A stretch of 64,000 nt of DNA from Pseudomonadota bacterium (GCA_018823175.1 JAHJIY010000085.1:8396-72395); one strand, 5' to 3'; positions 17,790 to 49,043 are shown, numbered from the stretch's first letter. The notes: generated by a model from the letters alone, not told the origin. Translations and numbers: made by a program.

Positions 17790-17804
17790 AATCCTTACTC
17801 TCCT

Positions 17805-26787: not shown

Positions 26788-26856
26788 GCCTGGTACCCCT
26801 TTATCCTTTTGATTTACGGTTAATCGACTTCTCTGGTCATACAAACGAAGCCGCGG

Positions 26857-28962: not shown

Positions 28963-29375
28963 CAGCTGGATAATATACTTCCCGGTTGTCCGCCAATCCA
29001 CTTAACAAGAGGCGCGTGATAATTTGTCAACCGACGTACCCCCCCCAGGGTACTTCCTTATGAATGTAAAAAATCATCTAACACGTTTAGTTCAGGTTTA
29101 CTTAATTACATATTATTTTTTGATTAACACTAATTTTTAGCCATAAAAAAGGTTATCCAACTCTGTGTTATCTGTAGACAACGTAAAGCATGCAAAATGA
29201 TTTCGCCACAACCTATGCTTAGAGTCAGCGTTATAAGATTGCCACGTCACAAAGTTTATACCCCTTGCGGGGTGCTTCTTGCAAAGACTTGCAAGGTTTC
29301 GTCTCTACAGTAAGCCCAAATTAGATGGTAACCAGATATTATTTCAACTGCATGCAAAGTCCATAATGTACATGT

Positions 29376-29431: not shown

Positions 29432-31168
29432 TCAGCGACTGTGCTTGATCTGCGGGTTGTTCCGGTCATAGGTCTTGGGAGCGTGGCAGCCGACCACACA
29501 CGTCCCGCCTACCTTACTCTTGGTAAAGCTGATCGGGTACGACCAGGCCCCGAACGGTACCTCATAACGAACATGCTTGCCCTGGTTGCTGGCATGGGCA
29601 TCATGACATGAGGTGCAGGTCCGGCCTTTTTTCATGTTAACGTGAAAGTAGTGCAGGTTATAGTTGCCGTCTCTGAAGTTGGTCAGGGTCGTGGTCAGTT
29701 TGGTTTTGGCGATGTCCTTGTTGTGACAGCCAAAACACAAGTCATAGTTTTCCGGTTCATAGGGACTGTAAAATTCCATCGGGAAATAGCGGGCCAGCAG
29801 TTTGGAAAACTGTGAACCGTGCACGTTATGACAGGCGGCGCAGTCACCGGTCTGAACCGGACCGTGCCGATTCTGGCTGTCGGCAATAATATCGCCGAGG
29901 TCGGTATGGCAGGAGAGGCAGAGCTTCTCCATGGAATCCTTGAGTAGCGACCCGTAATTGGAGGAATGGGGCCGGTGACAGGCGACACATTTACCTTCGT
30001 CTACCGGCGGATGTTTAACTTTGGCGGTGTTGATCGCCGTATAGATCTCGGGAGTCGCCTCTTCATGGCAGGAGGCGCAAAGTTTCCCTCCCTCTTCGTG
30101 CAGTTGGTAAGGGGCGTCGGAACTGTGCGGGTCATGGCACTTGTTGCAATCTTCCTGGACCGGGGCGTGGATATTCTCCATGGTGAATTCAGCCTTGCGG
30201 TCTTCATGGCATTCAAAACAAAGTTGGCCGTCCTTGGTTGGCGCGATCAGTAGACTGGCATTGGCCGAAGAGTGGGGCTGGTGACAGGCGATGCACATGC
30301 CGCTGCCCACCGGGCCATGCTGATGTTTTTTGGTAAAAATCCCGTCTTCATGGCAGTTGAAACACAAGGCGCTGATCGCCTCACCTTCCGCTTTTAACTG
30401 GAAGCGCATATTTGATTGATGGGGATCATGACAGTCGGTGCAACCTTCTTCGACCGGGGCGTGGATAACCTCTTGGTTAAATTCTTCTTTTTTGGCTTGG
30501 TGACAGACCAGACAAAGATCGCCGCCGGTGCGCTGCAGGGCCTTTGCTTCAAAGGTGCCGTGCGGGCTGTGGCAAGAGATGCAGACGCCAGCCCCGACCG
30601 GACCGTGGACATGTTTGGCCTTGCCTTTATCGGTATGACATTCCCCGGTGGTGCAGTCGGCCCGGGCCGGGATTATTTTTTTAAAATCGTATTCCCCCTT
30701 CTTTAATCGATGGCAATCCTGGCAATTAAGGGTTGAGGGTTTCTGGTGAACATAAAATCTTTTAAAATCCTTGGGCGGCGCATTTTTCTTCTGGTCCGGG
30801 GTGTAAAAGACCCGCACCGAGGTCTGCAGCTTGTCGCTGCCTATTTTTATCGTGTTCAGCCCATTTTTTAAGCTGACCGGCGCGCCGAAAACTCCGCCTT
30901 CATTAACTGTGGCCCGGTCATTTTTGAGCTTGGTGTCCACTCCCTTGAGCTCAATGTTATCTATTTTGATCCCCTGGACGGTGCCGGCCAGAAACAGGTT
31001 TTTTTCGGTTACCCACACGGCGTCTGGCGGGGAGACTATTCGGATGGCCGGGTCGGCGGCCAGAGCCGGCCGGCTAAAGATTAAAGCGCCGTTAACGACG
31101 GATATAAACAGAAGCAATAGTAGCCGGATATCATGACATCTCATCCTTTTCTTCCCCATCATGGTCAT
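29432..31168 (-). CDS. 16-heme cytochrome c with N-terminal Ig-like domain (14 CxxCH + CX4CH + CX3CH)
   Basis: Signal (ALA); Ig-like segment (..LKNGLNTIKI); CTTGECH and CVVGCH atypical motifs; doubled-CxxCH repeats. Confidence 0.9.
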   Translation of the reverse strand: MTMMGKKRMRCHDIRLLLLLFISVVNGALIFSRPALAADPAIRIVSPPDAVWVTEKNLFLAGTVQGIKIDNIELKGVDTKLKNDRATVNEGGVFGAPVSLKNGLNTIKIGSDKLQTSVRVFYTPDQKKNAPPKDFKRFYVHQKPSTLNCQDCHRLKKGEYDFKKIIPARADCTTGECHTDKGKAKHVHGPVGAGVCISCHSPHGTFEAKALQRTGGDLCLVCHQAKKEEFNQEVIHAPVEEGCTDCHDPHQSNMRFQLKAEGEAISALCFNCHEDGIFTKKHQHGPVGSGMCIACHQPHSSANASLLIAPTKDGQLCFECHEDRKAEFTMENIHAPVQEDCNKCHDPHSSDAPYQLHEEGGKLCASCHEEATPEIYTAINTAKVKHPPVDEGKCVACHRPHSSNYGSLLKDSMEKLCLSCHTDLGDIIADSQNRHGPVQTGDCAACHNVHGSQFSKLLARYFPMEFYSPYEPENYDLCFGCHNKDIAKTKLTTTLTNFRDGNYNLHYFHVNMKKGRTCTSCHDAHASNQGKHVRYEVPFGAWSYPISFTKSKVGGTCVVGCHAPKTYDRNNPQIKHSR

Positions 31169-31627: not shown

Positions 31628-32662
31628 TTATTTTGAGGTATGACAGATAAAGCAACCAGCCTCAGCAGAACCGACTGTATCATCACCTGGAAATGCAGCA
31701 AGAGTGGTTCCGGCGTTCATGTTAGCAAGATTCCAACGCAGGAGATCCGGGTAGGCTGAACCATGGGACATATGGCAGCTGAGACAGATTACCTGACCGG
31801 TCGTGGTGTTGGTGTTGGTCATTTCGCCCAGAGGAATGGCTGGGTTATAAACGCCACCATTGGCGTCATTATATGCTTCACCAGTCAGGTTGGCATTTAC
31901 TGGGATATCGGTTGGATGCCGCTTCCAGATCTGAGCAGATCCAGCACCAGCGACACTCAATTGGTTTGACGAGCCATGGAAATTGCCGTGACATACGCCG
32001 CAAACGGCTGCGCCCATACCGTTAGTTATATCAGCTGAATAACGACTAGAGCCGACAACTTCGGCTGCATCGTATCCGTAGTTAATGCCTTCAGTGCCGT
32101 CGACAAATACTGCGGAACCTTGTACTTCAAGGAAGCGGTAGCTGCCACCGTTTGTTGTGCCAACGGTATTTAATACAGTATTTGCGTTGGAATGATGAGC
32201 GCCAACTGCATTATGACAACCGAGAGCGCCACTACAGGACAGAGTATTTGCAGCAACAGCTCCACCTGGTGAAACGGTCAAAGTGCCGTCATTGGACTGT
32301 TTACTAACGGCAATTAGATCGGCCACATTGTGAGTTTGATTTGAAGTATTTGAAAAATAGCCACCGGCCAATGGATTTGCAATGTCGTTAACCTGTGGTG
32401 CTGCTGGGCCGTTTGCGCCACTTGAGTAACCAGTGGCGGTGTTTGGGTCCGCGTTATGCGCATGGCAACCAACGCAGTTATTGGCCAATAACAGCTGGTT
32501 GTTACCGGTGGTATAAGCAACCCCACCGACTGATGCTCCGTCCTGGCTGTTGTGCATGGTGTGACAGCCGCTGCATGGTCCACCCAAGGCAAAAACGGTG
32601 GCTGGCAATGCCAGGGCCGCAGTTGCAAGGGCAGCGATGATTGTTCTTTTTACTGTAATCAT
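31628..32662 (-). CDS. OmcS/OmcX-like hexaheme cytochrome c (copy 1, putative major nanowire subunit)
   Basis: Signal peptide; CSGCHTMHNSQ, CVGCH, LAGGYF, THNV, CSGALGCH (CX5CH), SYRFL, CGVCHGNFH, RHP, CLSCHMSHGS and terminal CFICH; AGGAGG SD. Confidence 0.88.
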   Translation of the reverse strand: MITVKRTIIAALATAALALPATVFALGGPCSGCHTMHNSQDGASVGGVAYTTGNNQLLLANNCVGCHAHNADPNTATGYSSGANGPAAPQVNDIANPLAGGYFSNTSNQTHNVADLIAVSKQSNDGTLTVSPGGAVAANTLSCSGALGCHNAVGAHHSNANTVLNTVGTTNGGSYRFLEVQGSAVFVDGTEGINYGYDAAEVVGSSRYSADITNGMGAAVCGVCHGNFHGSSNQLSVAGAGSAQIWKRHPTDIPVNANLTGEAYNDANGGVYNPAIPLGEMTNTNTTTGQVICLSCHMSHGSAYPDLLRWNLANMNAGTTLAAFPGDDTVGSAEAGCFICHTSK

Positions 32663-32847
32663 TCTTCTTTCCTCCTAATTTTGATTGTATTTTGTCCTCA
32701 ATTAAGGACTTCCCCTTTTAATACTCTTTTTAACATGTCGGAACGGTATTTCTCCGGCCCCTGGTATATCATTTGTTTACGGCGTCAATCAATACACTTC
32801 ATTTGGGGCGCATTATGCACCAACATTTTTTTAACCTTGTACTACAA

Positions 32848-32876
32848 ATAATATCATAAGCATTTGGCGATGTCAA
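32848..32876 (-). promoter_or_regulatory. Near-consensus sigma70 promoter of OmcS-like copy 1
   Basis: Minus strand TTGACA-N17-TATTAT with extended -10 TGn; implies a ~180-nt leader. Confidence 0.7.
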
Positions 32877-32973
32877 CTTGAAATCACCAAATCGTGTAAA
32901 CTGTGATGTCCCATGATTTTATGAGCCCCAAGGCATAGGTCCGGTCAGATAAATATGAATTTTGAATGATATT

Positions 32974-33696
32974 TTAGATATTTTCTCCATTTAATTTATC
33001 GAGCAAAGCTTTCGAGATTTCCTGGAGCAGGGTAGCAACTAATTTTTGGGGCTGCGGGTCGTTTTTGATCGGTCGGCCGATCACCAGATGATCAGCTCCG
33101 TTGATTATGGCCTGGCGGGCAGTGGTCACCCGGACCTGATCGGCCCGGGCGCTGCCGGCCGGGCGCACTCCTGGAGTGACAATGGTGAAATCGGTGCCCA
33201 GATGGCGGCGGAGCATGGCCGCCTCCTGGGCCGAGGCCACAATCCCGTCACTGCCTAATGCCAGGGCCTGGCGGGCCCTTTCCAGTACCAGTTCGGTCAG
33301 GGGAATGGTGATTCCCATCCGGCGCAGATCGTTTTGGTCAAAGCTGGTGAGGACGGTCACCGCCAGAATCTGCAGCTCTTTGCGGTCGCGGAGGGCGGCG
33401 GCAATCATCGGTTCGTTGCCGTGCACAGTGGCGAAGGTGATGCCACGTTCGGTAAGCTGCTGGACCGCAAGGTGGACTGTTTCCGGAATATCAAAAAATT
33501 TGAGGTCGACCATCACCTTGTTGCCGCGTCTGATGATTGCGTCAATTACCGGAAAACCGCCGGCCAGAAAGAGCTGCAGGCCGACCTTGAAAAATTTGAT
33601 TTGGGCATCTAGCCTTGCCACCCAGTCCAGAGCAGTTTCGGCCTGGGCAAAATCCAGGGCAAAGATAATTCTTTCGTTTAAAGGAATATTTTTCAT
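32974..33696 (-). CDS. pyrF: Orotidine-5'-phosphate decarboxylase
   Basis: IFALD, FKVGLQLF, DLKFFDIPETV, AVTVLTS, VTPGVR, DQ.RV and VIGRPI motifs. Confidence 0.95.
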   Translation of the reverse strand: MKNIPLNERIIFALDFAQAETALDWVARLDAQIKFFKVGLQLFLAGGFPVIDAIIRRGNKVMVDLKFFDIPETVHLAVQQLTERGITFATVHGNEPMIAAALRDRKELQILAVTVLTSFDQNDLRRMGITIPLTELVLERARQALALGSDGIVASAQEAAMLRRHLGTDFTIVTPGVRPAGSARADQVRVTTARQAIINGADHLVIGRPIKNDPQPQKLVATLLQEISKALLDKLNGENI

Positions 33697-33730
33697 CGGT
33701 TAGGGTAAATCTCCGGGGTTTGATTTGTTA

Positions 33731-35647
33731 TTATTGTATTTTGCGCAATAATTGTTGTCGGTATCGGGTCATCGCCTCGCGGCCCATATCCATATTGTTG
33801 CAGATCAGGGCCTGGTCCAGGGCGGCGATCGCGGCCGGAATTTGATTTTGGCCGGCCAGGGCAAAGGCCAGCCTTTGATAGAGCCGACCATCGCGCGGGT
33901 CAAGATTGAGCCCTTGACGGAATGATTTTTCCGCCAGTTGGTGGCGACCAAGCAGGCCAAAAACCACCCCCTGATTAAGCCAGGGATCAACCAGTAAAGG
34001 GTCGAACTGGATCGCGGCGGCCGCCTCGGTCAGGGCCCGGGGCAGGTCGTCTAATTTTATGTAAATTATCGCCAGGTTGTTGTGAATTTTGGCCGGCGAC
34101 ACATTGGGGTGACCCAGCGCCTGTTCAAAGCAGTTTTTGGCCTCGGTCAAAAGGTTAAGTCTTTCATAGGACCGACCCAGATTAAGCCAGGGCGTGCCAT
34201 TTTTGTGGTCAAGCCTGATCGCCTCGCGCAGGATGGAGATTGCCTTGAGGTGATTGCCGGCCATCTCATGGGCCCGGCCCAGATTGGCATATCCCCGGCC
34301 CAGGTTGGGGGATTTTTTTACCACATCCGACCAGAGGCTGATCTCACTGGCCCAGACCTTATTACGCTGCCAGGTGCCCAGGCAAAGAAACATGATCACC
34401 AGTGCAAAAAAGAGACGCCGCAAGATTTGACGTTGGGCAAAAATCTGGGCCAGTCCGACCACTCCGGCCAGGATCAGCATAGTGGAAGGCAGATAAAGCC
34501 GATGTTCAAAGATCAACTCCAACGGAAGGATGGTTGACTCAATGGCCAGATTGGCCAGAAACCAGAAAAGACCGAAGGACAGAAGTTTATGCCGCTTAAA
34601 CAGGTATGCGGTTAAGACCAGTAGGCCGATGATCCCCAGGAGGGCCAGTAAGGTCTGGGGCGGCGCCAGCAGGGAGTGAGAAATCTGGTAATCGTAGGCC
34701 AGATTCAGACGGGAAGGTAGGGGCAGTAAGATCAGGCCCAGATAATGAAAGATGATTCTGCTCTCGGTTAACAGCCGCTCCAGCATAGTGAAATCCCTGC
34801 CCCCGAAACCATGAGTAATCGCGGTAAATGGATTTGTGCCCAGGTAAAGCCAACCGACTACATATAAGACAACAAAAGTGATGAGCAGGGACGGGACTAT
34901 TATTTTATAATCAGTTTTTTTTGCCTGGTTTCGAAGAAAATAAAACTCATAGGCCGGAATGATCAGAACCAGCATGGCGCTGTTTTCCTTGCTGAGCATG
35001 GCCGCCAGGCCGCAGAGCAGGCTGCCGGTCCACCAGAGATATGAGCGGATGGGGAAAAAGGTGGCAACCGGGAAGGGATGTTTTTGTTTTTCTGGTAATG
35101 ACCGACAAGCAAGAAAGGCAAGGCGCCCTCGGACATAACAGAGCAGGGCGGCCAGATAAAAAAAGGCGGCCATACTGGTCATCCGCTGGACCAGATAGGT
35201 TACGGCATTGGTCTGCAGCGGATGGACCGCCCAGAGCAGAGCGGCAATTAACGAGAGTTCCATCGCCGCCCGGGGTTTAAAGTCGATCTGAGGTAAGATT
35301 AAGGTGGTAAAAGAAAGGCCATAGAGCAGAAAGGCGGTCAGTAAATGGATCGCGAGATTGACCAGGTGATAACCAAAAACTTCGTAGCCATGAAAATAAT
35401 AGTTGAGGCCGAAACTCAAGTTCGGCAACCAGCGGTGTTTAAGTGGGCTCCTGGTCGTTAGTTGGTGCAAAGAGTTCCAAGATAATTTATTGATCCGCAG
35501 GGCGTGATTCTCGGTAATATTTTGTTCATCATCAAAGCTGAACGGAGTCTGAAAAGAGTTGGCATAGGTCAGAGTTGTTAAGATGAGCAGGACTAAGGCC
35601 GGCAGTAAAAACAGATGAATTAAATTTTCAGACTTGTGGATCTTCAT
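33731..35647 (-). CDS. TMTC-like GT-C membrane glycosyltransferase with C-terminal TPRs (copy A)
   Basis: First-loop FDD motif, GYHLVN..IH, HPLQTNAV.Y..QR, SKE, EHRLYLP and RN..W; about 11 TM helices; about 5 TPRs. Confidence 0.8.
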   Translation of the reverse strand: MKIHKSENLIHLFLLPALVLLILTTLTYANSFQTPFSFDDEQNITENHALRINKLSWNSLHQLTTRSPLKHRWLPNLSFGLNYYFHGYEVFGYHLVNLAIHLLTAFLLYGLSFTTLILPQIDFKPRAAMELSLIAALLWAVHPLQTNAVTYLVQRMTSMAAFFYLAALLCYVRGRLAFLACRSLPEKQKHPFPVATFFPIRSYLWWTGSLLCGLAAMLSKENSAMLVLIIPAYEFYFLRNQAKKTDYKIIVPSLLITFVVLYVVGWLYLGTNPFTAITHGFGGRDFTMLERLLTESRIIFHYLGLILLPLPSRLNLAYDYQISHSLLAPPQTLLALLGIIGLLVLTAYLFKRHKLLSFGLFWFLANLAIESTILPLELIFEHRLYLPSTMLILAGVVGLAQIFAQRQILRRLFFALVIMFLCLGTWQRNKVWASEISLWSDVVKKSPNLGRGYANLGRAHEMAGNHLKAISILREAIRLDHKNGTPWLNLGRSYERLNLLTEAKNCFEQALGHPNVSPAKIHNNLAIIYIKLDDLPRALTEAAAAIQFDPLLVDPWLNQGVVFGLLGRHQLAEKSFRQGLNLDPRDGRLYQRLAFALAGQNQIPAAIAALDQALICNNMDMGREAMTRYRQQLLRKIQ

Positions 35648-35778
35648 TTTTATTTTAGTCCCGATATTGAAGGGGCATGCTGATTTTTCTCAGCCGGGAA
35701 GAATTTTCAGTCGATTACTATCGGCAGGTGAAGTGATTTAGCGATGGTTTGGAAATTTACTTCGTTGCGGGTCGGCGT

Positions 35779-37458
35779 TTAATTATTATGATAGAGAAAC
35801 CAGCCGCCCAACAGTCCCAGGGCGGCGACTGGTCCGTAGACCCCGAGCGAAGCCAGGAGCGTCAGGTAACCTGATTTGCCGGCGGGAAAGGTGATGGTCG
35901 CGCCAATTTCCGGGACGGCGACAATTACTTGCGGAGGATTAACGAGCGGCGGGGTCAGGAGGGTCATTTTTTTTTTCGGTGGTTCGATCTGTTTGGGTCC
36001 GATTTTGATTATCTCACCTGGTAATTCGGTGCTTTCTGCGATGAATTTAATTTGGGTCAGGACCGGGCCGGCCAGGTGAGGAGGTTTAACCGGTTTGGCC
36101 GGAGTCGGCGGACTGACCGCCGTAATCTGGGCGGCTTCGGTGTTGGCTACGGTCGGCACCAAAGCCGTTTCAGCCAGCGGCTCTTCCGGTGGGCTGATTT
36201 CCGAAACCTGGGGCAGGGCCGGGCTTAAAACCGGACGCCTGGTTCCCATGTTCGGGTCAATTACCTGTACCCGGCGGTTAAACAGGTCGGCGACGATGAC
36301 GTTCCCTTTTTGGCCGACGGCAATATTGTTCGGGTAATTGAACCAGAGCGGACCGCTACCTTGGCCTCCGAACTCGAAGATATATTTGCCGGTTAAATAA
36401 TCATAACAAATTATGGTGTGGCGCATATAGTCTACCACGTAAATCGCCTGGTGGACTTCATCAATTCCCAGGGCTAGAGGGGTGCTCAGTTTTCCTGTCG
36501 CACCTCCTTTCTCGCCAAAGGCGAGGAGAAACTCGTGTTTATCATTATAAACATAGATCCGGCTGGTTTCGGTGCTTAGCAGATAAATACGTCCTTTTTG
36601 ATCAATGACCACATCGTTCACGAAGACCGGCAGTTTTTGCTCTTTTATGCCAAGAGGTTGATCTGATTCCTTGGCGGTGGGTAGAAACTCTGCCGGCAAA
36701 TTGGCCAGTTCAGCGGCAATTTCCTGGGCGGTTTGATCTTCCGGGGTGATATTGGCCTCGGGGGTCGGAGCCTTTGGTTCCGAAGCTTTTTCAGCTTTTG
36801 GCGCGCGGTAGACAATGTCGGTGGGGGTTATCCAATTAAGAAATTTGCCATTGGGGTCAAGAACCAGAACGCCCTTTGTGTTTTCCTGCTTAGCAAGTAA
36901 GATCCCACATATATAAATATTTCCTTGTTGGTTTACCGCAACGCGGGATGGATTAAAGGAAAGAACCTCAGGAATTTGATCGAAGAAGATTTCTTTTTCC
37001 AGAAAAAATGCGGCATTCAGGATCGTGATTCGTGGACGATTTTTGGGATTTTTAACGCTGGAACCTACTTGTCCTGTTCCCTGGCAAAGATAAATAGAAC
37101 CTTTTTTGTCAACAAAGATCCCAGAAGGGTTAGTGATATTGCGGCCTTGGCCTAGAGAGATCTCCGGGAAATAATCGTCCCCGTAGATGGTTATGCGACC
37201 GGTGGAACTAACGACATAGGTTTCTTTTGTAGTGTAATCGTAGAATACGTCAGTCGGGATATTAATTGGCAATCCCTGATCATCGATTTTTAAGATCGTC
37301 ACCATCCGGATCGGGACCTGGTCGTCAAGCGCCAGGACAATTGACGGGCAGATGACGGCCGTAAGAAAGGCACTCAGGATGCAGAGCTGCACGGTTGATT
37401 TCCGGAGCAAGGCCAAAGGGCCTGATTTTGTATGTATATGTAATAAAGTTACTGACAT
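35779..37458 (-). CDS. NHL-repeat beta-propeller protein with Pro-rich stalk and C-terminal membrane helix
   Basis: NHL repeats (FGEKGGATGKLSTP, FGGQGSGPLWFNYP, VADLFNRRVQ); P/A/E-rich insert and tail; terminal hydrophobic segment. Confidence 0.78.
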   Translation of the reverse strand: MSVTLLHIHTKSGPLALLRKSTVQLCILSAFLTAVICPSIVLALDDQVPIRMVTILKIDDQGLPINIPTDVFYDYTTKETYVVSSTGRITIYGDDYFPEISLGQGRNITNPSGIFVDKKGSIYLCQGTGQVGSSVKNPKNRPRITILNAAFFLEKEIFFDQIPEVLSFNPSRVAVNQQGNIYICGILLAKQENTKGVLVLDPNGKFLNWITPTDIVYRAPKAEKASEPKAPTPEANITPEDQTAQEIAAELANLPAEFLPTAKESDQPLGIKEQKLPVFVNDVVIDQKGRIYLLSTETSRIYVYNDKHEFLLAFGEKGGATGKLSTPLALGIDEVHQAIYVVDYMRHTIICYDYLTGKYIFEFGGQGSGPLWFNYPNNIAVGQKGNVIVADLFNRRVQVIDPNMGTRRPVLSPALPQVSEISPPEEPLAETALVPTVANTEAAQITAVSPPTPAKPVKPPHLAGPVLTQIKFIAESTELPGEIIKIGPKQIEPPKKKMTLLTPPLVNPPQVIVAVPEIGATITFPAGKSGYLTLLASLGVYGPVAALGLLGGWFLYHNN

Positions 37459-37486
37459 TTTGTATTTTGCTCTTTGCGTGAATTGG

Positions 37487-38698
37487 CTAGAACTTCATTT
37501 TCCCGCGATCTCCACCACTATGACACAATAGGCAGATTTGGCCGCCCCGAATGTCTTCGATCAGTAAATACTTGTAGGTTGAGCCGTGGGGATTATGACA
37601 ACTGGTACAGGTAAAGGGCGAACCTTCACGGCGCGGATCTTTTGGTCCGGAAAGGGGGTGTTTCTGCACCGGGTGGTCGTAGTCCATGCCTTCCAGGGCG
37701 CCATGACAACTGGTGCATAATTTGTTAATCGGTTCATACAACTGAAAACGATTATTGGTGGCGTGCGGGCTGTGGCAGGCCACGCAACCCTGGGCATTCA
37801 GGATTCCGTGTATGTTTGCCCGCGGGGTGTCTGTTTGAATGTATTTCTTTTTATCGGCGTGGCAGGCCACGCAGATTTTGCTTTTGCCGTCGGTCCATAA
37901 CTGGTATTGGTTTCGTTCGCCATGGGGGTCATGGCAGATCGTGCAGTCTCCGGTGCCGACCGGCCCGTGAATATGAGACATGCTGCTCCAGGCTCTTTCG
38001 TTGACATGACAGCGAAAGCAGAGTGACTCAATCCTGCCGGTGGGGATGACGACCTTTTCTTCTTTGCTTTTGTCTGATTGATGGCAGGAAAGACAGAAGA
38101 GGTTGGCGGATGGACTGTGGCGCCATTTCGATTCCAGCACGGTCGAGCTGTGACATGAGTAGCAGGTGGTAGAAAGCTGGCCGTAGAGGGCGCGATCTAC
38201 CTGGGCCTCGGTCGGTAGTTTGTTGTCGTGGCAGATGTTACACTCTTTGGGACTGGTGGTCTCGCGGTGAAACAGGTAGGTAGATGTGCTGGAAAAGTCA
38301 ACGTTTAACAGGGAGCGCAGCGGTTTAAATCGGAAGTCAAGCTCCCGGTTTACCGGCGCAATGTTGAATTTGTTGCCGCCTTTTTGCAGGGGAAGTTTGT
38401 AGTGGACGTAATGATTGCCGTCCTTTTCCCATTTGCCGATCGGATCAAAACTGCGGCCATCGGCAGATTTCATCGAAACCTTGGTCAGGTCACCCGATTC
38501 CGTTAATTTCAGGACCACGTGCACCACGGGATTTCTGGAATAGATTTCGCCATCGCTTTTTGGAGCCAGGACTGATATTTCACCGGCCGTGGCTGAAATA
38601 GTGAAACCGGTAAGTGGCATCAGAAAAAAGGCCAGGACTGTCAGGTTGAAGATGATCCTGGTTGATATTGTTTTTTGATTTGGAGTTTGCTCGGTCAA
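37487..38698 (-). CDS. Decaheme cytochrome c with N-terminal Ig-like domain
   Basis: 10 CxxCH counted; signal peptide; LQKGGNKF Ig-like segment resembling the N-domain of 29432..31168. Confidence 0.9.
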   Translation of the reverse strand: MTEQTPNQKTISTRIIFNLTVLAFFLMPLTGFTISATAGEISVLAPKSDGEIYSRNPVVHVVLKLTESGDLTKVSMKSADGRSFDPIGKWEKDGNHYVHYKLPLQKGGNKFNIAPVNRELDFRFKPLRSLLNVDFSSTSTYLFHRETTSPKECNICHDNKLPTEAQVDRALYGQLSTTCYSCHSSTVLESKWRHSPSANLFCLSCHQSDKSKEEKVVIPTGRIESLCFRCHVNERAWSSMSHIHGPVGTGDCTICHDPHGERNQYQLWTDGKSKICVACHADKKKYIQTDTPRANIHGILNAQGCVACHSPHATNNRFQLYEPINKLCTSCHGALEGMDYDHPVQKHPLSGPKDPRREGSPFTCTSCHNPHGSTYKYLLIEDIRGGQICLLCHSGGDRGKMKF

Positions 38699-38710
38699 GG
38701 ATCGCCTCCG

Positions 38711-39745
38711 TTATTTAAGCATGGATTTTTTGAAAAGTAGTTCGTAGGCGCTACGATATTCCTTGGCGGCGTCATCGATTTGTTTTTGTTCTTCAAGCAG
38801 GGTGGCCAGGATATAATGCAGGTTGGCATCCCTTGAGCTGCGCAGCATTAGAAATTTGAGATCGTCAATCGCTTCGCCCGGGTTGCCTTCTTTGGCTTTG
38901 ACTCGGGCCCGGCAAATCTGACCGTCTAGTGAGTCCGGGTTGAGTTTCAGACTTTTGGCCAGAGATTCTTTGGCTAAATCAATTTTATCGATGTCAATAT
39001 AAAGGCAACCCAGTTGCTCGTGGGCTTCGGACATATTCGGTTCAAATTCGACCGCTTTATTAAATTCGATAATCGCCGCGTCCGGCTGGCCCCGCTGGAT
39101 CATGGTCAGGCCCATATGCATGTGGCGTTTGGCGTCTTTTTCTTCCTTGGATTTTTCGACCATTTGAGGGCGTAGCTCCTCTTCGACCTGGGCGCGGGTT
39201 TTTTCGCCCAGCATAACCTCGATTTCGCCTTTCAGTCTTTTGGGAAGGTCACGGCTGTAACCCATGCCGGCCACGACCTTGCCCTGTAGGTCGACCAGCA
39301 TGATCGAAGGCATGACAAAAATGCCTAGTTCACCGTAGGCTTTACGGTCAGGATCCAGATATACCGGCATCGAAAATTCGGCGGCGGCCAGCACTTCGTC
39401 AATAACCTCGGGGCCGTCATTTTGAATATCTATGCTCAGTAGTTGTATTTTTTTATCTTTTAAAAAAGGAGAGAGTTTTTTGATGACTTTGAGGGTGTCG
39501 ATTGAACGTTTTTTCTTGGTAGGAATATCGGCCCCCCAGAAGACCAGCATCGCGTTGTTGTTGCGTAGCTGTTCCAGGGTCATTTGCTGACTGGACTTAT
39601 ATTCGGTCAGGGTGACGGTAGGCAGAGGATCGCCGGGATTAACCGCCCGGAAAGGAAAAGAATTTGCTTCACCGGTACCGTTAAGGAACAAAAGAAATGA
39701 AATAATGCCAACCACCAATGCCGACAAATGTAATCTGTTGCCCAA
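38711..39745 (-). CDS. Exported redoxin-fold (no CxxC) + TPR protein
   Basis: PGDPLP..TL, LVFW, VYLDPD..AY..LG..VMPS.MLVD..GKV thioredoxin/TlpA-like fold with GADIP in place of CxxC; 3-4 TPRs. Confidence 0.75.
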   Translation of the reverse strand: MGNRLHLSALVVGIISFLLFLNGTGEANSFPFRAVNPGDPLPTVTLTEYKSSQQMTLEQLRNNNAMLVFWGADIPTKKKRSIDTLKVIKKLSPFLKDKKIQLLSIDIQNDGPEVIDEVLAAAEFSMPVYLDPDRKAYGELGIFVMPSIMLVDLQGKVVAGMGYSRDLPKRLKGEIEVMLGEKTRAQVEEELRPQMVEKSKEEKDAKRHMHMGLTMIQRGQPDAAIIEFNKAVEFEPNMSEAHEQLGCLYIDIDKIDLAKESLAKSLKLNPDSLDGQICRARVKAKEGNPGEAIDDLKFLMLRSSRDANLHYILATLLEEQKQIDDAAKEYRSAYELLFKKSMLK

Positions 39746-40303
39746 AGTTTCCCCCCCTTTGATGCGTTATTGTCTTGGCCGGTATCTCGTAAATTTATGA
39801 AATAGCCGCTATTTTTGTAAGACGTATATTTATTTTTGGTGAAACTATAATTGTAAATATATCAGTTGTTTGCCTGTCGGAATCTCGTAAGTGCGAAGTC
39901 AAGAAAAAGCAGCATAAGCAGGCAAAACCTTATTTAAGACTTGCAGAATCTAGCATGTAAATATTTCTTTGTCAAAGATACTTTTAGTTGATCAGTTGGA
40001 TGCAAAGACTGTTAACAAATTGAGAAACGGTGATTTTTTATGGAAATCCTTTCAATCAAAGTGTGCTGCGAATAGAATTGCGATTGACTTGCCTTGTTCT
40101 GGTAATATATATTTTTGATTTTTGGAGGCGTAAGCGACCTTTTGAAGTATTTAGTACTTTGTAATGTGGCGGGGACCTTTATGGTTATGCCAATATTTTT
40201 GGACTTCAAAAAAGAATGAAAGTCTGGTTTATTAAATGATTCTGGACAGAAATGAATCGTTGATTATGAAGTTTGAGAAATTCATGAAGTGAGATAAATA
40301 TTA

Positions 40304-41983
40304 ATGCCGGTAGATTCTTTAAAAAACAGTTGTCCTGCCTGGGTCGGGCACCTGGTATTTTTATTAATATTGGCGGTGGTCACCGGTGTTGCTTACAGTA
40401 ATTCACTTTTTTCACCGTTTGTTTTTGATGATTTAGTTAATATTGTTGATAAGTCCACCATGCAGATGACCGCTCTTACCTGGAAAAGTATGCAGCGGGC
40501 AGCGGCGGAAGGAGTTTGCGCTAAGCGCTGGTTGCCGAACTTGAGTTTCGGCCTCAATTATTATTTTCATGGCTATGAGGTTTTTGGCTATCACCTGGTT
40601 AATCTGGCGGTTCATCTGTTGACCGCCTATTTATTCTATGGTTTCTCCTTTACCACTCTGACTTTACCTCAGATCGGCTTTAAACCCCGGGTGGCGGTTG
40701 AACTTTCGTTAGTCGCCGCACTGCTCTGGGCGGTCCATCCGTTGCAGACCAATGCCGTGACCTATCTGGTCCAGCGGATGACCAGTATGGCCGCCTTTTT
40801 TTATCTGGCCGCCCTGCTTTGTTATGTTCGGGGCCGTCTTGTCTTTCTGGCTAATCGCTTATTACCAGAAAAACAAAACCATTTCGCGCCGGCTGCCATC
40901 ATTTTCCCCTTTTTTCCACTCCGCTCATATCTCTGGTGGACCGGTAGTCTGCTTTGCGGCCTGGCGGCCATGCTCAGCAAGGAAAACAGCGCCATGCTGG
41001 TGTTGATTATTCCGGCCTATGAATTTTATTTTCTGCGGGAGCAGACGGTAAAACCTGATTACAAAAAAATAATCCCGGCCCTGCTCATAACCTTTACTGT
41101 CTTATTTGTAGTCGGTTGGCTTTATCTGGGCACAAATCCATTTACCGCGATTACTCATGGTTTTGGGGGCAGGGATTTCACTATGTTGGAGCGGCTGTTA
41201 ACCGAGAGCAGAATCATCTTTCATTATCTGAGCCTGATCTTGCTGCCTCTGCCTTCCCGGCTGAATCTGGCCTACGATTATCAGATTTCTCACTCCCTGC
41301 TGGTGCCGCCTCAGACCTTGCTTGCCCTCCTGGGGATCATCGGCCTGCTGGTCTTGACCGCATACCTGTTTAAACGGCATAAATTACTGTCCTTTGGTCT
41401 TTTCTGGTTTCTGGCCAATCTGGCGATTGAATCAACCATCATTCCGCTGGAGCTGATCTTTGAGCATCGGCTTTATCTGCCCTCCACCATGCTGATCCTG
41501 GCCCTGGTGGTCGGCCTGGCTCAAATCTTTAGAGAGCGTCAAGTTATGCGACGCCTCTTTTTGGCGGTGTTGATTGTGCTACTAGGCCTGGGCACCTGGC
41601 AGCGCAATAAGGCCTGGGCCAGTGAGATCAGCCTCTGGTCTGATGTGGTAAAAAAATCCCCCAACTTGAGCCGAGGATATGATTATCTAGGCCGGGCTTA
41701 TAATATAGCGGAGCGCTATCAGGATGCCTTTGATGTATATCAGGATGCGGCTCGGCGGGGAATTGATGAAGTCGGAATTTACAACAACTGGGGGAAGGCT
41801 GCTTTTAATCTTGGCAAGATCGACCGGGCGGTAGATTTATTGGAGCATGCTGTGCAATTGGAACCACGGCACTCGGAGAGTCATTATAATTTAGGAGTTG
41901 CTTATGGTACTCTGGGGCGGCAAGATGAGGCCCGCCGGGAGATGGCGTTGGGAATGAAGTTGAATGAGTTAAAACAACGATAG
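40304..41983 (+). CDS. TMTC-like GT-C membrane glycosyltransferase with C-terminal TPRs (copy B)
   Basis: FVFDD, HPLQTNAV, SKE and EHRLYLP motifs; core nearly identical to copy A; about 3 TPRs. Confidence 0.8.
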   Translation: MPVDSLKNSCPAWVGHLVFLLILAVVTGVAYSNSLFSPFVFDDLVNIVDKSTMQMTALTWKSMQRAAAEGVCAKRWLPNLSFGLNYYFHGYEVFGYHLVNLAVHLLTAYLFYGFSFTTLTLPQIGFKPRVAVELSLVAALLWAVHPLQTNAVTYLVQRMTSMAAFFYLAALLCYVRGRLVFLANRLLPEKQNHFAPAAIIFPFFPLRSYLWWTGSLLCGLAAMLSKENSAMLVLIIPAYEFYFLREQTVKPDYKKIIPALLITFTVLFVVGWLYLGTNPFTAITHGFGGRDFTMLERLLTESRIIFHYLSLILLPLPSRLNLAYDYQISHSLLVPPQTLLALLGIIGLLVLTAYLFKRHKLLSFGLFWFLANLAIESTIIPLELIFEHRLYLPSTMLILALVVGLAQIFRERQVMRRLFLAVLIVLLGLGTWQRNKAWASEISLWSDVVKKSPNLSRGYDYLGRAYNIAERYQDAFDVYQDAARRGIDEVGIYNNWGKAAFNLGKIDRAVDLLEHAVQLEPRHSESHYNLGVAYGTLGRQDEARREMALGMKLNELKQR

Positions 41984-41997
41984 GAATATACCGCTAA

Positions 41998-44187
41998 ATG
42001 CAAAACTTCGAGAAAATTTTGACCAAAAAATCAACCACAGTCTTTTTGCTCTTGTTGATTATGAGTGTCGGATTTTACGTAAGGTTTGATAATTTAAGCT
42101 ACTGGTACCAGCATAAAGATAATTTCTTTTTTGCCTCATATTCGTTACCCGCCACAATAAATATCGATTCATACTATTATCTGGACATTGCCGGTGATTT
42201 ACTGCACGGGGATATGCAAAAGTTTGACGACCAGCGCTGTTTCCCTGCCGGGTCAGTAAGGCAGTCCTCGGCCCCATTACTGTCTGTTCTTCTGGCAGGA
42301 TTAAGTTTTTTACTGGATTTTCCTCTCGAATGGGTTGCGGTTATTCTCCCCCCTTTTCTTGGTATCCTTCTGGTGATCCCTACCTATTTTTTAGGATATA
42401 CGCTGGCTATTAATACTAAAATGCCCTGGGGCCGCAAAAGGACCATTAGTCCGGTCGAGGCAAAGATCGCAGGTTTCTGTGCGGCCTTCTTTGCGGTACT
42501 TTCACCCGTTTATATTGAACGGTCATCGCTTGGCTGGTGCGACACCGATATCCTGAATGTTACCTTTCTGACGAGTTGTATTCTTTTTGCCCTTCGTAGT
42601 TACACGGGCCAAGCAAAGAATGAGCAAGTCAGATTTCTGGCGTTATTTGGGTTGGCTTTTCTGCTTTTTGTCTGGTGGTGGGACCAGGCAGTCGGCCCGG
42701 TTATGGTCTTGAGCGGGGGTGTGTTGCTGTTGCTGTTGCTAATGACTTTTTATGAAAACAGAAGAAGGTTCCTCAGTTATCTGCCCGTTCTGGCAGTAAT
42801 TTTATTCGGAATGATCATTTGGAAAGGAGAGTTTTTAGTTACGATCCACCATAGTATTTTAAATACCTTAAAATACGTGATGGGCGCAGAAAGTAATTCT
42901 GTCTTTCCGCCTTTGGCGGAATTTGTTTTGGAACAAGTGGGGATTTCTTTCCAGGCGGTTGCGATTAGAGTTGGCGGTAGTATTTTCAATTATACCATTT
43001 CAATTATCGGTCTGGTTTTTCTGGCTTTAATCTCCTGGAAAAAGTCTATATTTTTACTCCCCTTGATTGCCTTAAGTATCTTGTCTTTTGAAGTTTCCAG
43101 ACTGAATATCTTTGTCGCCCCATTGTGCGGTCTGGGGCTTGGTTTTGTCGCGGTCGCCCTTTTTAAGTCCGGATATTTGCCTGATCGGGGGAAGCTTGTT
43201 TTTTTGGCTTTTTTTATCCTTTTTTTCAGTTGGTTCCCGATAGTTGAAGCGCAGAAGTATAATTTTATTCTTCCGGCCCTTGATCCAAGCTTATATGAGG
43301 CCATGGGGGATCTGGCGGAAGATACTCCTGAGGATAGCGTGATCTGGTCATCATGGGGTCATGGCCATCCCCTGGTCTTTTACTCTAAAAGAAAGACGAT
43401 CAGTGATGGTGTTTTTCATCCGTCGTCACTGCTTTATATTTCATTTTTTCCTTTGGCCACTGATAACTTTAGGTTATCGGCCAATTGGATCCAATTCTAT
43501 ACGGTCAATGGCCAAAATGGTTTGGCCAAGATCTTTAAAGTGCTTACCGGTGCGACCGATGACTGGGGCCAGGGTGGACCTAGACTCCAGGAATTATTAG
43601 GGGCAGGAGTTGAGGTTAGCAAAAATATCTTAAAGGAAAAATATCAGAAAACACCCGCCGAAATCGAGGAGCTGCTTGCTTTCTTGTTTCCCGTCGATTG
43701 TCCGCCGGTTTATCTTTTTCTGGACTATAAACTGGTTGGCGAGAAATGGTATTTTCTGGGGAAGTGGGATTTGGCCAACAGGTCAGGTCCTCCCCCTTAT
43801 ACGATGCTTCCCGTTTATTCATTTGAACAAAGCGGCAAAGACATGATAACGGGCCGGGGTAAAACCGGTAATTTCATGGTGAATCTCAATAACGGGGAAG
43901 GGCGGTTCAACACGACGCCATTAAGTTTTATTGATATAAATTATGAACTGGGCGGTAAACTCCATGAAAGGGTTTACCCGTGGAGAAAAAAAGGGCATGT
44001 CCTCTATCTGGTCCAAAATGATGAGAAAAAGGTCCAATTTGGAGTACTGGCAGATCATCAAACTGCCAGCTCTGTTCTCCTTAAACTCTTTTTTGAAAAG
44101 AAATTTGATCAGGAATATATCCTGCCGGTCAAATCTCAACTGCCTTTGTATCTGATCTGTAAAGTTGTCGGCGAAAAATATTTCTAG
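41998..44187 (+). CDS. STT3/PglB/AglB-family oligosaccharyltransferase-like protein
   Basis: DSYYY, RSSLGWCDTD (R...DxD), FVLE, SRL and VIWSSWGHGHP....RKTISDG at the positions of the PglB catalytic and WWDxG motifs; about 13 TMs plus a periplasmic domain. Confidence 0.8.
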   Translation: MQNFEKILTKKSTTVFLLLLIMSVGFYVRFDNLSYWYQHKDNFFFASYSLPATINIDSYYYLDIAGDLLHGDMQKFDDQRCFPAGSVRQSSAPLLSVLLAGLSFLLDFPLEWVAVILPPFLGILLVIPTYFLGYTLAINTKMPWGRKRTISPVEAKIAGFCAAFFAVLSPVYIERSSLGWCDTDILNVTFLTSCILFALRSYTGQAKNEQVRFLALFGLAFLLFVWWWDQAVGPVMVLSGGVLLLLLLMTFYENRRRFLSYLPVLAVILFGMIIWKGEFLVTIHHSILNTLKYVMGAESNSVFPPLAEFVLEQVGISFQAVAIRVGGSIFNYTISIIGLVFLALISWKKSIFLLPLIALSILSFEVSRLNIFVAPLCGLGLGFVAVALFKSGYLPDRGKLVFLAFFILFFSWFPIVEAQKYNFILPALDPSLYEAMGDLAEDTPEDSVIWSSWGHGHPLVFYSKRKTISDGVFHPSSLLYISFFPLATDNFRLSANWIQFYTVNGQNGLAKIFKVLTGATDDWGQGGPRLQELLGAGVEVSKNILKEKYQKTPAEIEELLAFLFPVDCPPVYLFLDYKLVGEKWYFLGKWDLANRSGPPPYTMLPVYSFEQSGKDMITGRGKTGNFMVNLNNGEGRFNTTPLSFIDINYELGGKLHERVYPWRKKGHVLYLVQNDEKKVQFGVLADHQTASSVLLKLFFEKKFDQEYILPVKSQLPLYLICKVVGEKYF

Positions 44188-44232: not shown

Positions 44233-45156
44233 TCAGTCAACCGGGGTGGTCAGCAAGTCGGCAAGCTTTTGTTCAAGCAAGGTCTTGATTCCGTAGGATG
44301 CGGCCTCGACATAAAAAGGGGAAGCGGACGACTTCATGATATACTCACCATCATTTCCCGGTAATTCCCAAATCAGCAGTTTAATTATATTTTCTTTAGT
44401 TGTCAGCTTCAGGGTGGTTAACGGTTCTCCGGTGGGGTAGTCATTTTTATTGAGCACTACCCCGGTCAACAAGATCTGGCCGGCCTGGTCAATAAAATCC
44501 TGGACCTTGGCCGCTGCGAGCTGGCCGACGTCGGTGTGCCAGACATTTTCCGTCTTTTTTAAAGTGAAAGAACCATGACTGTTTTGTAGTTCCACCTTGT
44601 TTAATTCATCCGGGGAAAGATTAATATATTTGTTCTGCCACCATGACTCGTGATCGGTTGTTACCTCCCAGGTTGAAAAGTCGTGGGCCAGATAGACATT
44701 ATCACTGTTGCCGTTGCGCAGATGGATGGTTTGGTAATTGGGCGCCGTTCCCAGATAAAGGGTGGTGGCTGCGGAGTTTTCCGGGATGATTTTAAGCCGC
44801 CGGCTGAATTTATTATCCTCCACCTCCAGGCGGTCATGGCTGGCCTTGGTCCGGGTGACAAGTCGGGTAGATTTTAGTGTGGCGACTTTTTTGAGCAGCT
44901 CTTCGATCTTCTCGGGGTCGGCCGGAAAGGGCACGCCCGGTTCAAGTTCCAGGCTCCAGTTGTTTTGGTTTTTGGTTAAGGTTAGTGTTTTGCCTTGGTC
45001 ATCGGTTATTTCCAGGCTTTTTACCGCGCCGGTTTCGAGGCCGGTGAAGAGGTCTGTGGTTGGCGGGGCACTGATTTTCCCTGGTCGATAGATATAACCG
45101 ATAACCATGATCTGCAGGATCATGAGGGCGGCCAATAGTTTGTTGCGGTTGTTCAT
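44233..45156 (-). CDS. DUF4340-domain protein (Gld-like ABC system accessory)
   Basis: N-terminal anchor; repeated .L.K....W......PAD and TLYLG..P.....LR motifs; coupled to the upstream ABC genes. Confidence 0.75.
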   Translation of the reverse strand: MNNRNKLLAALMILQIMVIGYIYRPGKISAPPTTDLFTGLETGAVKSLEITDDQGKTLTLTKNQNNWSLELEPGVPFPADPEKIEELLKKVATLKSTRLVTRTKASHDRLEVEDNKFSRRLKIIPENSAATTLYLGTAPNYQTIHLRNGNSDNVYLAHDFSTWEVTTDHESWWQNKYINLSPDELNKVELQNSHGSFTLKKTENVWHTDVGQLAAAKVQDFIDQAGQILLTGVVLNKNDYPTGEPLTTLKLTTKENIIKLLIWELPGNDGEYIMKSSASPFYVEAASYGIKTLLEQKLADLLTTPVD

Positions 45157-48107: not shown

Positions 48108-49036
48108 TTTGCACCTCCCGCCACTGTGGTCAGTTGATTAAAGACGGCTTCCAGATTTTTTGTTTCCTGTCGCAGTTCGCACAGCGCCCAGTTATGTTCG
48201 CGGGCCAGTTGGTAGATGGCCGGGCAGATATCTTGAGCGGCCTCAATCCGGAAGGTTGTGCGGTGGTCATTTCGGCTGACGGTCTCGACTTTGCTCGCCT
48301 CGGACAAGGCGGTGAGCTGCCGGCTGATCGTTTGTTCATCGGTTGGGTTGGCGATGGTTACGATGGCGGCGGCTTTTGCGGACAGTTCGGAGAGCCGGGC
48401 ATCGGCCATCAGTTCGCCGGCCATGATGATGATCGCCCGGTCGCAGGTTGCTTCAACCTCGGAAAGAATGTGGGTGGAGAGCATAACGGTACTATGGTGC
48501 GCCAGGTTTCTGATTAAATGGCGGACCTCGACGATCTGGGACGGATCAAGGCCGTTGGTCGGTTCGTCCAAAATTAACAGTTTAGGTTTATGCAGAATGG
48601 CCTGGGCCAGGCCGACGCGCTGGCGGTAACCTTTACTTAAGGTGCCGATCCGGCGGGTCAACCGTTTTTCCAGGCCTACCGCCCGGATTGCCTCGGAAAG
48701 GTCGTGTCGTTGTTGATTCTGCGGGATATTGCGCAGATCGGCAACCATCCTCAGTTGCGACTGGACGGTGAGCTCGGGATAAAGGGGGGCGTTTTCCGGC
48801 AGATAACCAATCATTTTCTGGACCTCGCCGGGGTGGGCCAGAATGTCCAGGCCGCCGATTTGGGCGGTGCCGGAGGTCGGGTGGAGAAAGCCGGTCAGGA
48901 TCTTCATCAAGGTGGTTTTGCCGGCCCCGTTGGGACCAAGTAACCCGATGATCTCACCTGATTTTACCGAGAAGGAGACTCCTCGTAACGCTTCGATGTC
49001 GTCGTATGATTTTTTAAGATTTTTTATTTCAATCAT
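48104..49036 (-). CDS. GldA-like ABC-2 transporter ATP-binding protein
   Basis: GPNGAGKTT, LSKGYRQRVGLAQA, LDEPTNGLDP, STHILSEV. Confidence 0.92.
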   Translation of the reverse strand: MIEIKNLKKSYDDIEALRGVSFSVKSGEIIGLLGPNGAGKTTLMKILTGFLHPTSGTAQIGGLDILAHPGEVQKMIGYLPENAPLYPELTVQSQLRMVADLRNIPQNQQRHDLSEAIRAVGLEKRLTRRIGTLSKGYRQRVGLAQAILHKPKLLILDEPTNGLDPSQIVEVRHLIRNLAHHSTVMLSTHILSEVEATCDRAIIIMAGELMADARLSELSAKAAAIVTIANPTDEQTISRQLTALSEASKVETVSRNDHRTTFRIEAAQDICPAIYQLAREHNWALCELRQETKNLEAVFNQLTTVAGGAK

Positions 49037-49043
49037 AATTTTT

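Follow-up and report, generated by a model that had tools for sequence, protein, structure and literature searches.

Introduction

Glycosylation genes have been described beside the genes of a cytochrome nanowire: in Geobacter and Geomonas, the omcE clusters are followed by a block containing GT2, GT4 and GT39 glycosyltransferases together with tetratricopeptide repeat (TPR) proteins. According to the available part of that report (mBio 2026, PMC13712944), the block is facultative across the Desulfuromonadia and its presence tracks extra, putative glycan densities on the OmcE filaments. The present work concerns a stretch of 64,000 nucleotides from a Pseudomonadota sediment bacterium (GCA_018823175.1 JAHJIY010000085.1:8396-72395), hereafter the window, whose nearest homologues bear names pointing to the Desulfobulbales. 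At positions 31628-44187, two TMTC-like genes, each encoding a putative GT-C membrane domain followed by a TPR arm (GT-C/TPR), and one STT3/PglB-like gene are found among genes for multihaem cytochromes related to the nanowire subunit OmcS. An original prediction on this DNA had proposed that the locus encodes its own O- and N-type glycosylation of nanowire subunits, and that no such system had been described. The second statement is out of date with respect to the omcE clusters and the first could not be established: its N-linked part appears unlikely and its O-linked part is retained as a minority hypothesis. The reading favored here, held with moderate confidence, is that this lineage has set a general periplasmic glycosylation module and a mosaic paralogue beside a conserved nanowire locus and within it.

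The likeness to the omcE block resides in the position of glycosyltransferases beside a nanowire cluster, in the use of a GT-C protein-mannosyltransferase family with TPR proteins, and in facultative occurrence. The omcE block, however, comprises 15-70 genes, including GT2, GT4, sugar-modification and export genes, and lies behind omcE (PMC13712944), whereas the window displays three genes beside an OmcS-like cytochrome, TMTC-like proteins instead of GT39, a PglB-fold enzyme and no donor-synthesis genes that could be found. The cytochrome part recalls the Geobacter osc (omcS companion) operon by the presence of OmcS-like paralogues, PPIase-domain and beta-propeller proteins, and lipoproteins or large unknown proteins; osc parts of such kinds have been proposed to act in OmcS folding, secretion and morphology (cited in PMC13194489). 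This likeness concerns the kinds of parts and not the orthology of individual Osc proteins, and the available text of PMC13194489 mentions no glycosyltransferase. OmcS-like cytochromes have already been described in the Desulfobulbales, together with their induction on iron oxide (PMC12545173, available part), and nothing on gene clusters or glycosylation was found in the available part of Portela 2024 (PMC10954620).

The enzymes themselves have described relatives of two kinds. The eukaryotic TMTC1-4 protein O-mannosyltransferases, of CAZy family GT105, form multiple paralogues with different TPR arms, as do the proteins studied here. Further common traits are about 11 transmembrane (TM) helices, a C-terminal TPR region predicted to be non-cytoplasmic, DD and K-E motifs, and an 'AVHP..T' segment in TM3 (PMC7801869, available part). 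The window proteins differ in being bacterial, so that their donor would be a bacterial polyprenol-phosphate sugar, and in lacking a significant match to TMTC_DUF1736. With the PglB proteins of Campylobacter and Desulfovibrio, the STT3-like enzyme shares the full-length fold (TM-score 0.74-0.76), equivalents of the catalytic residues and a sulfur-cycle deltaproteobacterial lineage; it differs by having SWGHG in place of WWDYG, by the lack of an adjacent pgl-type glycan assembly locus and by its pairing with a TPR-GT-C protein. The statement that a Desulfovibrio HmcA is N-glycosylated is borne out by the literature, the multihaem cytochrome HmcA of D. gigas carrying a glycan at N261 (PMC4894442, available part).

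Results and Discussion

Gene organization of the locus

A TMTC-like gene had been predicted in the same minus-strand run as the Redoxin-TPR, decahaem and NHL genes, upstream of an OmcS-like gene, and a second one was predicted to form a divergent unit with the STT3/PglB-like gene. Both layouts were recovered, and the intervening gene left unnamed in the original prediction proved to be pyrF. The features are listed below, with positions counted along the whole window.

16737-17789: OmcS-like cytochrome 2, 350 aa, in a second cluster
29432-31168, minus: multihaem cytochrome, 578 aa, 14 CXXCH and 2 longer motifs, conserved partner of the OmcS-like gene
31628-32662, minus: OmcS-like cytochrome 1, 344 aa, 5 CXXCH, signal peptide
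32974-33696, minus: pyrF (orotidine-5'-phosphate decarboxylase), housekeeping, Pfam OMPdecase E-value 2.7e-47, between copy A and OmcS-like 1
33731-35647, minus: GT-C/TPR copy A (P0001, 638 aa), TMTC-like, longer TPR tail, between the NHL gene and pyrF
34260-35434: homogenized tract in copy A, paired with the tract in copy B
35779-37458, minus: NHL beta-propeller protein, 559 aa
37487-38698, minus: decahaem c-type cytochrome, 403 aa, 10 CXXCH
38711-39745, minus: Redoxin-TPR (ResA-like thioredoxin fold and TPR), first gene of a conserved three-gene unit
40304-41983, plus: GT-C/TPR copy B (P0002, 559 aa), divergent from the Redoxin-TPR operon
40526-41709: homogenized partner tract in copy B
41998-44187, plus: STT3/PglB-fold glycosyltransferase (P0003, 729 aa), Pfam STT3
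44233-45156, minus: DUF4340 gene, start of a DUF4340 / ABC-2-GldG-like / ABC ATPase / htpG block

Copy B and the STT3-like gene are separated by 14 bp, and copy A lies on the same strand as the NHL gene, 131 bp downstream of it. OmcS-like cytochrome 1 matches the OmcS structure 6ef8 over residues 29-331 (phmmer E-value 3.1e-9); five CXXCH motifs were counted in it, the number of haems in OmcS being six. Every cytochrome and partner protein considered as a candidate substrate displays a signal peptide or a lipobox-like N-terminus. A pattern scan returned consensus-like promoters before the Redoxin-TPR gene, before copy B, and between pyrF and OmcS-like gene 1, the latter at 32876-32848 with 11 of 12 consensus matches; these calls are pattern matches whose total equals the expectation from shuffled sequences. 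Were these promoters real, transcription of the Redoxin-TPR unit could continue into copy A and pyrF, with the OmcS-like gene having its own start.

The STT3/PglB-like enzyme

The protein scores 74 bits with the Pfam STT3 model, whose cut-off is 24.5, and 23.1 bits with STT3-PglB_core (cut-off 23). As a phmmer search of the Protein Data Bank (PDB) with this protein alone gave no match, a family profile was required; it retrieved PglB with an E-value of 3.6e-36 and provided a residue alignment. The AlphaFold2 (AF2) model, built from a 28-member alignment, displays a mean predicted local distance difference test (pLDDT) value of 90.7. The top Foldseek matches of this model are the three C. lari PglB entries 6gxc, 5ogl and 3rce (E-values 8e-27 to 8e-25, TM-scores 0.69-0.76), with TM-scores of 0.74/0.76 for 6gxc; PglB is matched over the full length at 18% identity. 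Residues D56, D154/D156, E319 and R375 of C. lari PglB align to D57, D182/D184, E312 and R368. In 28 family members, which are 25-48% identical to the window protein, D57, D184, E312 and R368 are invariant and D182 is nearly so, conservation reaching at least 90% at each of these positions. The whole PglB periplasmic domain is kept, including the glutamate of external loop 5 (EL5), E312 being the equivalent of PglB E319.

The WWDYG motif is not kept. The W463-W464-D465-Y466-G467 stretch of C. lari PglB aligns to S452-W453-G454-H455-G456, giving SWGHG instead. The commonest form of the motif in the 28 members is [ST/A]-S-W-G-H-G and SWG-x-G is conserved in the closer homologues; WWD-x-G is retained in more distant homologues of the same order, and a few carry other variants. 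As described in the available part of PMC3527161, WWD forms hydrogen bonds with the sequon Ser/Thr at +2, and the C. jejuni PglB substitutions W458A/D459A, Y460N and G461D each abolish activity. The designation 'STT3/PglB-like' is therefore correct for the fold and the catalytic residues and incorrect for the motif. Alignment and model together indicate a PglB-fold transferase with its catalytic centre intact and its acceptor-reading site altered, so that specificity for N-X-S/T should not be assumed. The invariant catalytic residues and the conserved SWG-x-G point to selection on the active site. A complex predicted between this protein and residues 432-559 of copy B, its TPR arm, received a score of 0.00, which is not evidence either way. 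No description of a bacterial STT3 devoid of WWDYG, or of an SWGHG subfamily of PglB-like proteins, was found among the titles and abstracts listed.

The TMTC-like GT-C/TPR proteins

In the AF2 model of copy A (mean pLDDT 87.8), the helices are consistent with 11 TM segments followed by TPR helices from residue ~435, in agreement with the Pfam TPR matches that cover residues 437-614 of P0001; the TPR arm would be located on the non-cytoplasmic side. D39-D40, which form the DD motif of the first loop, K220 and E381-H382-R383 (followed by -x-Y-L-P) are invariant in 20 of 20 family members, and E221 is nearly invariant. In human TMTCs, the first loop carries a DD motif and a later loop a K-E motif, and there is a TM3 segment that, in TMTC3, reads 'LFAVHPIHT' and is resembled by 'LWAVHPLQT' in the window (PMC7801869). 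Neither N-terminal domain matches PF08409 (TMTC_DUF1736) at E-values up to 10, the comparison level for this loop model being the human TMTCs with E-values below 1e-30, and the sole Pfam match of the membrane domain is DUF6056, below its cut-off. An Atlas feature search returned PMT_2 clusters at 0.98 and a eukaryotic TMTC_DUF1736 cluster at 0.92, rank 18, and is used as a lead only. Foldseek with the full GT-C/TPR model retrieved TPR proteins only, a profile of the membrane domain by itself gave two chance-level matches in the PDB, and comparison of the GT-C/TPR and STT3-like families by hhalign yielded a probability of 14%. Since motifs and architecture match but PF08409 does not, copies A and B are best regarded as TMTC-like in these two respects and not as members of the Pfam family, which is the extent to which the predicted 'TMTC-like' assignment holds.

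Of 60 same-order relatives, 28 have members of the family, often in tandem arrays and with as many as 17 matches in one genome; five copies are found in the genome of origin. One scan of species genomes yielded at least 595 loci; they occur in Thermodesulfobacteriota and in metagenome-assembled genomes labelled Planctomycetota, Nitrospirota, Lentisphaerota, Bacteroidota and Pseudomonadota. The tract shared by copies A and B, of ~1.18 kb and 86-88% nucleotide identity, is restricted to codons ~72-463; the two copies diverge over the first ~70 codons and in their TPR tails. We read this pattern as the result of gene conversion affecting two older paralogues, or as the sign of a mosaic origin. 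No experimental study of bacterial TMTC homologues was found among the titles and abstracts listed.

A recurring pair of genes

At an E-value of 1e-40 or better, 17 of 200 same-order genomes carry the STT3-like gene, and 18 loci from these 17 were examined; the genome of origin has it once. A GT-C/TPR gene is adjacent to it, with at most one open reading frame (ORF) between them, in 4 of the 18 other STT3-like loci, which belong to four families. It is upstream on the same strand in L015 and L021 (gaps of 53 and 11 bp) and convergent in L220 and L221. A GT-C/TPR gene located 6.7 kb from the STT3-like gene in L214 brings the total within the fetched flank to 5 of 18. The GT-C partners are non-orthologous and stem from different parts of the family tree. 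Chance would account for at most 0.3 adjacency in 18 by a rough estimate that assumes no more than about ten copies per genome; as the pair recurs above chance, it looks like a functional module, which in the window sits beside a cytochrome locus. The literature search returned no description of a pairing of SWGHG PglB-like and TMTC-like proteins. A scan of 40 different ORFs of the window, covering it up to 60.9 kb, found no GT2, GT4 or flippase gene, and contig C84 holds a 73%-identical homologue of the GT2 gene that neighbors the module in L021, a candidate donor synthase.

Conservation of the cytochrome linkage

Conservation in relatives was followed with four anchors, namely the STT3-like gene, the Redoxin-TPR gene, the GT-C/TPR genes and the OmcS-like genes. 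The cytochrome linkage is absent from most relatives, and the conserved association of glycosyltransferase and cytochrome genes on which the original prediction depended was not observed: no OmcS-like gene was found near the STT3-like gene in any of the 18 loci, and GT-C/TPR genes are present in 2 of 39 clusters anchored on Redoxin-TPR. Redoxin-TPR marks the orthologous cluster more specifically than any other gene and has orthologues in 39 of 200 same-order genomes; one locus per genome, the best, was retained, and many of these loci end at contig ends. The two loci with GT-C/TPR genes are L085 (three in tandem) and L119 (two), the remaining 37 being without. The NHL gene is next to the decahaem gene in 30 of the 39, and neither a glycosyltransferase gene nor pyrF lies between the NHL and OmcS-like genes in any of them. 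These two genes are contiguous on one strand in six loci (L097, L099, L104, L085, L103 and L117). In L111, the Redoxin-TPR gene lies directly beside the DUF4340 / ABC-2 / ABC / htpG genes, which reproduces the layout of the window without its glycosyltransferases.

An ORF with at least three CXXCH motifs was found near the STT3-like gene in 2 of 18 loci (L215 and L216), both from one genus. In these, an STT3-like gene that keeps WWD is directly beside two dodecahaem genes (270-313 aa), the only STT3-cytochrome adjacency seen outside the window. The other neighbors of STT3-like genes are GT2, GT4, AsnB, GT9, PMT_2 and sulfotransferase-TPR genes.

With the GT-C/TPR genes as anchors, the best 80 of at least 595 species-genome loci (mean length 13 kb) include four with an ORF of at least three CXXCH, one with an OmcS-like cluster (L136) and none with an STT3-like gene. 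As a background, 11-13% of positions in the genome of origin lie within 8-10 kb of an ORF with at least three CXXCH. The other three GT-C/TPR genes of this genome (one on C60, two on C55) have no multihaem neighbor, and the other GT-C/TPR genes and the other two OmcS-like genes are not near each other. The 15 cytochrome-adjacent members are scattered over a tree computed from 104 membrane domains: 12 state changes are required, against a shuffled mean of 14.3 (15 of 500 shuffles as low), largely owing to two near-copy pairs, and no cytochrome-dedicated clade is apparent. The genes found between GT-C/TPR and OmcS-like genes in relatives are housekeeping genes: M24 peptidase, nadC, ligA, cysS, and a MiaB-like gene with a PHP-domain gene. 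In the related family f15, pyrF is carried by contigs without a listed GT-C/TPR gene in 5 of 5 genomes searched.

An IS200-type transposase gene (L083:13192-14064) was observed beside a GT-C/TPR gene neighboring an OmcS-like gene, a hint that some of the junctions between these two kinds of genes may be rearrangement sites.

Sequons and candidate acceptors

The sequons listed in the original prediction are all present, but their number does not exceed the expectation computed from 1000 composition-preserving shuffles. OmcS-like protein 1 contains four (NTS, NQT, NLT, NTT) for 5.5 expected (p 0.83) and OmcS-like protein 2 three (NRS, NES, NYS) for 4.5 expected (p 0.86), while the decahaem protein has 1 for 2.8 and the 14-haem protein 1 for 3.1. 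The cytochrome encoded at 13703-15031, labelled an octahaem protein in the prediction, carries the listed NDS, NKS, NLS and NYT, but seven CXXCH motifs were counted in it. The extended sequon D/E-X-N-X-S/T is absent from both OmcS-like proteins, which is weak evidence because the Desulfovibrio PglBs accept the minimal N-X-T (PMC4894442). Since sequons are not enriched and WWD, by which the +2 Ser/Thr is read, has been substituted, the sequon argument fails, and N-glycosylation at N-X-S/T appears unlikely.

The predicted richness of the cytochromes in Ser, Thr and Asn is real, with 17% S+T and 8-10% N in the OmcS-like proteins for proteome means of 11.6% and 4.0%. Such a composition would fit targets of O-glycosylation and, equally, many secreted proteins; the exported S/T-rich cytochromes are thus possible acceptors among many.

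The most sequon-dense product of the region is a 714-aa exported protein (26857-29001) with no Pfam or NCBIfam match, whose gene adjoins that of the 14-haem cytochrome in many relatives. It contains 22% S+T, 10.4% N and 19 N-X-S/T, a density in the top percentile of the proteome, yet as its composition predicts.

Interpretation of the locus

The window would combine two separate things brought together by this lineage. One is an OmcS-like, osc-type assembly for extracellular cytochromes, whose conserved units are Redoxin-TPR / decahaem / NHL propeller on one side and OmcS-like / 14-haem / 714-aa protein / lipoprotein on the other. The second would be a general periplasmic-face glycosylation module consisting of a TMTC-like TPR-GT-C followed by the PglB-fold enzyme. 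Both enzyme types are expected to act on the periplasmic face with polyprenol-linked sugars made elsewhere and to transfer them to exported acceptors, the TPR arm suggesting that these are proteins. Copy A would be an older paralogue whose core was homogenized with that of copy B; together with pyrF, it occupies the interval from the NHL gene to OmcS-like gene 1. The analysis establishes the gene identities, folds and motifs, the recurrence of the pair and the lack of a cytochrome linkage in most relatives; the activity of the enzymes, their donor and the class of their acceptors are inferred. An extracytoplasmic, polyprenol-dependent transfer of sugars is plausible for all three, whose catalytic motifs are intact. 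The position of copy A, shared with pyrF and found in no relative, weakens the view of the locus as one system.

A number of observations weigh against a merely general module and are better accommodated by a dedicated one, in which copy A, and perhaps copy B, would O-glycosylate the OmcS-like subunits, the NHL propeller or the 714-aa protein, with TPR arms selecting the substrate, as has been suggested for those of eukaryotic TMTCs, and the module acting as a facultative accessory of OmcS/OmcE-type clusters. GT-C/TPR genes are present in 4 of 80 OmcS-anchored metagenome loci (725 kb in total) for 0.4-2 expected, and in 3 of the 37 such loci of at least 8 kb. The clearest in-cluster arrangement is that of L269, a metagenome contig on which a GT-C/TPR gene lies directly upstream of an NHL homologue inside an OmcS-like cluster, with a GT2 gene upstream of the cytochromes. 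Seven same-order genomes (L082, L083, L084, L085, L086, L091 and L119) carry a GT-C/TPR gene within about three genes of the boundary of an OmcS-like cluster, for ~2.4-3.4 expected, and L085 and L119 place their tandem GT-C/TPR genes at the very junction used in the window. TPR-GT-C genes occur beside OmcS-like clusters sporadically, in several families and varied arrangements, at some 2-5 times chance by a rough Poisson estimate that rests on match counts in genomes related to one another. The position of copy A on the same strand as the NHL gene, 131 bp after it, the diverged TPR tail on a homogenized core, which is what a change of substrate would look like, the export and S/T content of the candidate substrates (17% in the OmcS-like proteins, 22% in the 714-aa protein) and the omcE precedent with its GT39 and TPR proteins (PMC13712944) all argue in the same direction. 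Dedicated nanowire glycosylation nevertheless remains for us a minority hypothesis, possible but not preferred. Of 39 orthologous clusters, 37 have no GT-C/TPR gene, the family taken together shows no link with cytochromes (4 of 80 loci, for a genome background of 11-13%) and has no clade devoted to them, housekeeping genes intervene here (pyrF) as in relatives, the near-consensus promoter between pyrF and the OmcS-like gene, a consensus match only, suggests separate transcription, and the enrichment estimates are rough and drawn from interrelated genomes. A broader proposal, which we consider rather unlikely, is that the TMTC-like TPR-GT-Cs form a bacterial toolkit of substrate-specific O-glycosyltransferases, one use of which would be a facultative 'glyco-coat' on cytochrome filaments and assembly proteins; copy A would have become dedicated to the nanowire through a new TPR arm on a homogenized core, and its SWGHG partner would perform a second, sequon-independent step.

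The acceptors might also not be proteins, the enzymes modifying envelope glycans or lipids such as the lipopolysaccharide (LPS) core, exopolysaccharide or periplasmic glycans in the manner of ArnT, with the TPR arm docking on an assembly machine. The company of the STT3-like homologues (GT9 of the heptosyltransferase family, GT2, GT4, AsnB-type amidotransferase and sulfotransferase genes) is typical of polysaccharide loci, the peptide-reading WWD residues are lost and the module abuts an ABC-2 / GldG-like transporter operon. We judge this explanation improbable, as the whole PglB periplasmic domain and E312 are kept, the TPR-GT-C architecture is known from protein O-mannosyltransferases (PMC7801869, available part), and no polysaccharide genes are found near the module among the window ORFs scanned. 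That the STT3-like protein is no longer a transferase, and serves as a non-catalytic partner or scaffold for the TPR-GT-C, seems very improbable: the substitutions that inactivate C. jejuni PglB (PMC3527161) do fall in the motif where the subfamily has S-W-G-H-G, but the catalytic residues are invariant or nearly so in 28 members and SWG-x-G is conserved. The preferred reading remains a general periplasmic module lodged at a nanowire locus.

Should nanowire subunits or assembly proteins be glycosylated by the products of adjacent genes, filament bundling, surface insulation, protease resistance and heterologous production would all be affected, and the omcE work raises the same questions on nanowire glycosylation. 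Regardless of any link with cytochromes, two elements are of use: a PglB-fold subfamily in which the catalytic site is kept and the sequon-reading WWD replaced, and the recurrent pairing of this SWGHG enzyme with a widespread, highly paralogous and uncharacterized bacterial TMTC-like family. Both represent a tractable entry to new bacterial protein-glycosylation chemistry.

Neighboring genes and additional observations

Two genomes of another family (L111 and L119) also show synteny of the DUF4340-htpG block (44233-51108 in the window) with the Redoxin-TPR cytochrome operon. GT-C/TPR genes are located at the junction of the block and the Redoxin-TPR operon in L119 but not in L111. A general tie between GT-C/TPR genes and the DUF4340 / ABC-2 operon, seen in L087 and L119, was considered and rejected, no DUF4340 or ABC-2-auxiliary match being present in the 80 GT-C-anchored loci.

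The second OmcS-like cluster, the larger of the two, is located at 16737-29001 (16.7-29 kb). In addition to the OmcS-like cytochrome, it contains genes for an NHL protein (298 aa), cytochromes with 16 and 26 CXXCH, a PPIase-domain protein, an LpoB-like protein and proteins of 545, 212 and 714 aa, lipoproteins and large unknown proteins being among its products. Its gene order is kept in relatives and on metagenome contigs (e.g. L084, L262, L267 and L294), and the cluster bears a resemblance to the osc operon. Two further exported cytochromes flank this cluster, at 10915-12117 (400 aa, 5 CXXCH) and 13703-15031 (442 aa, 7 CXXCH), and a homologous 'mhc7/8' gene adjoins a DUF4382-propeller gene in several relatives. 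Elsewhere in the genome of origin, contig C90 (8138-9349) carries a Redoxin-TPR paralogue, 61% identical and with no cytochrome genes nearby (L096), and contig C93 (5797-14526) contains an ORF of 2909 aa with 58 CXXCH.

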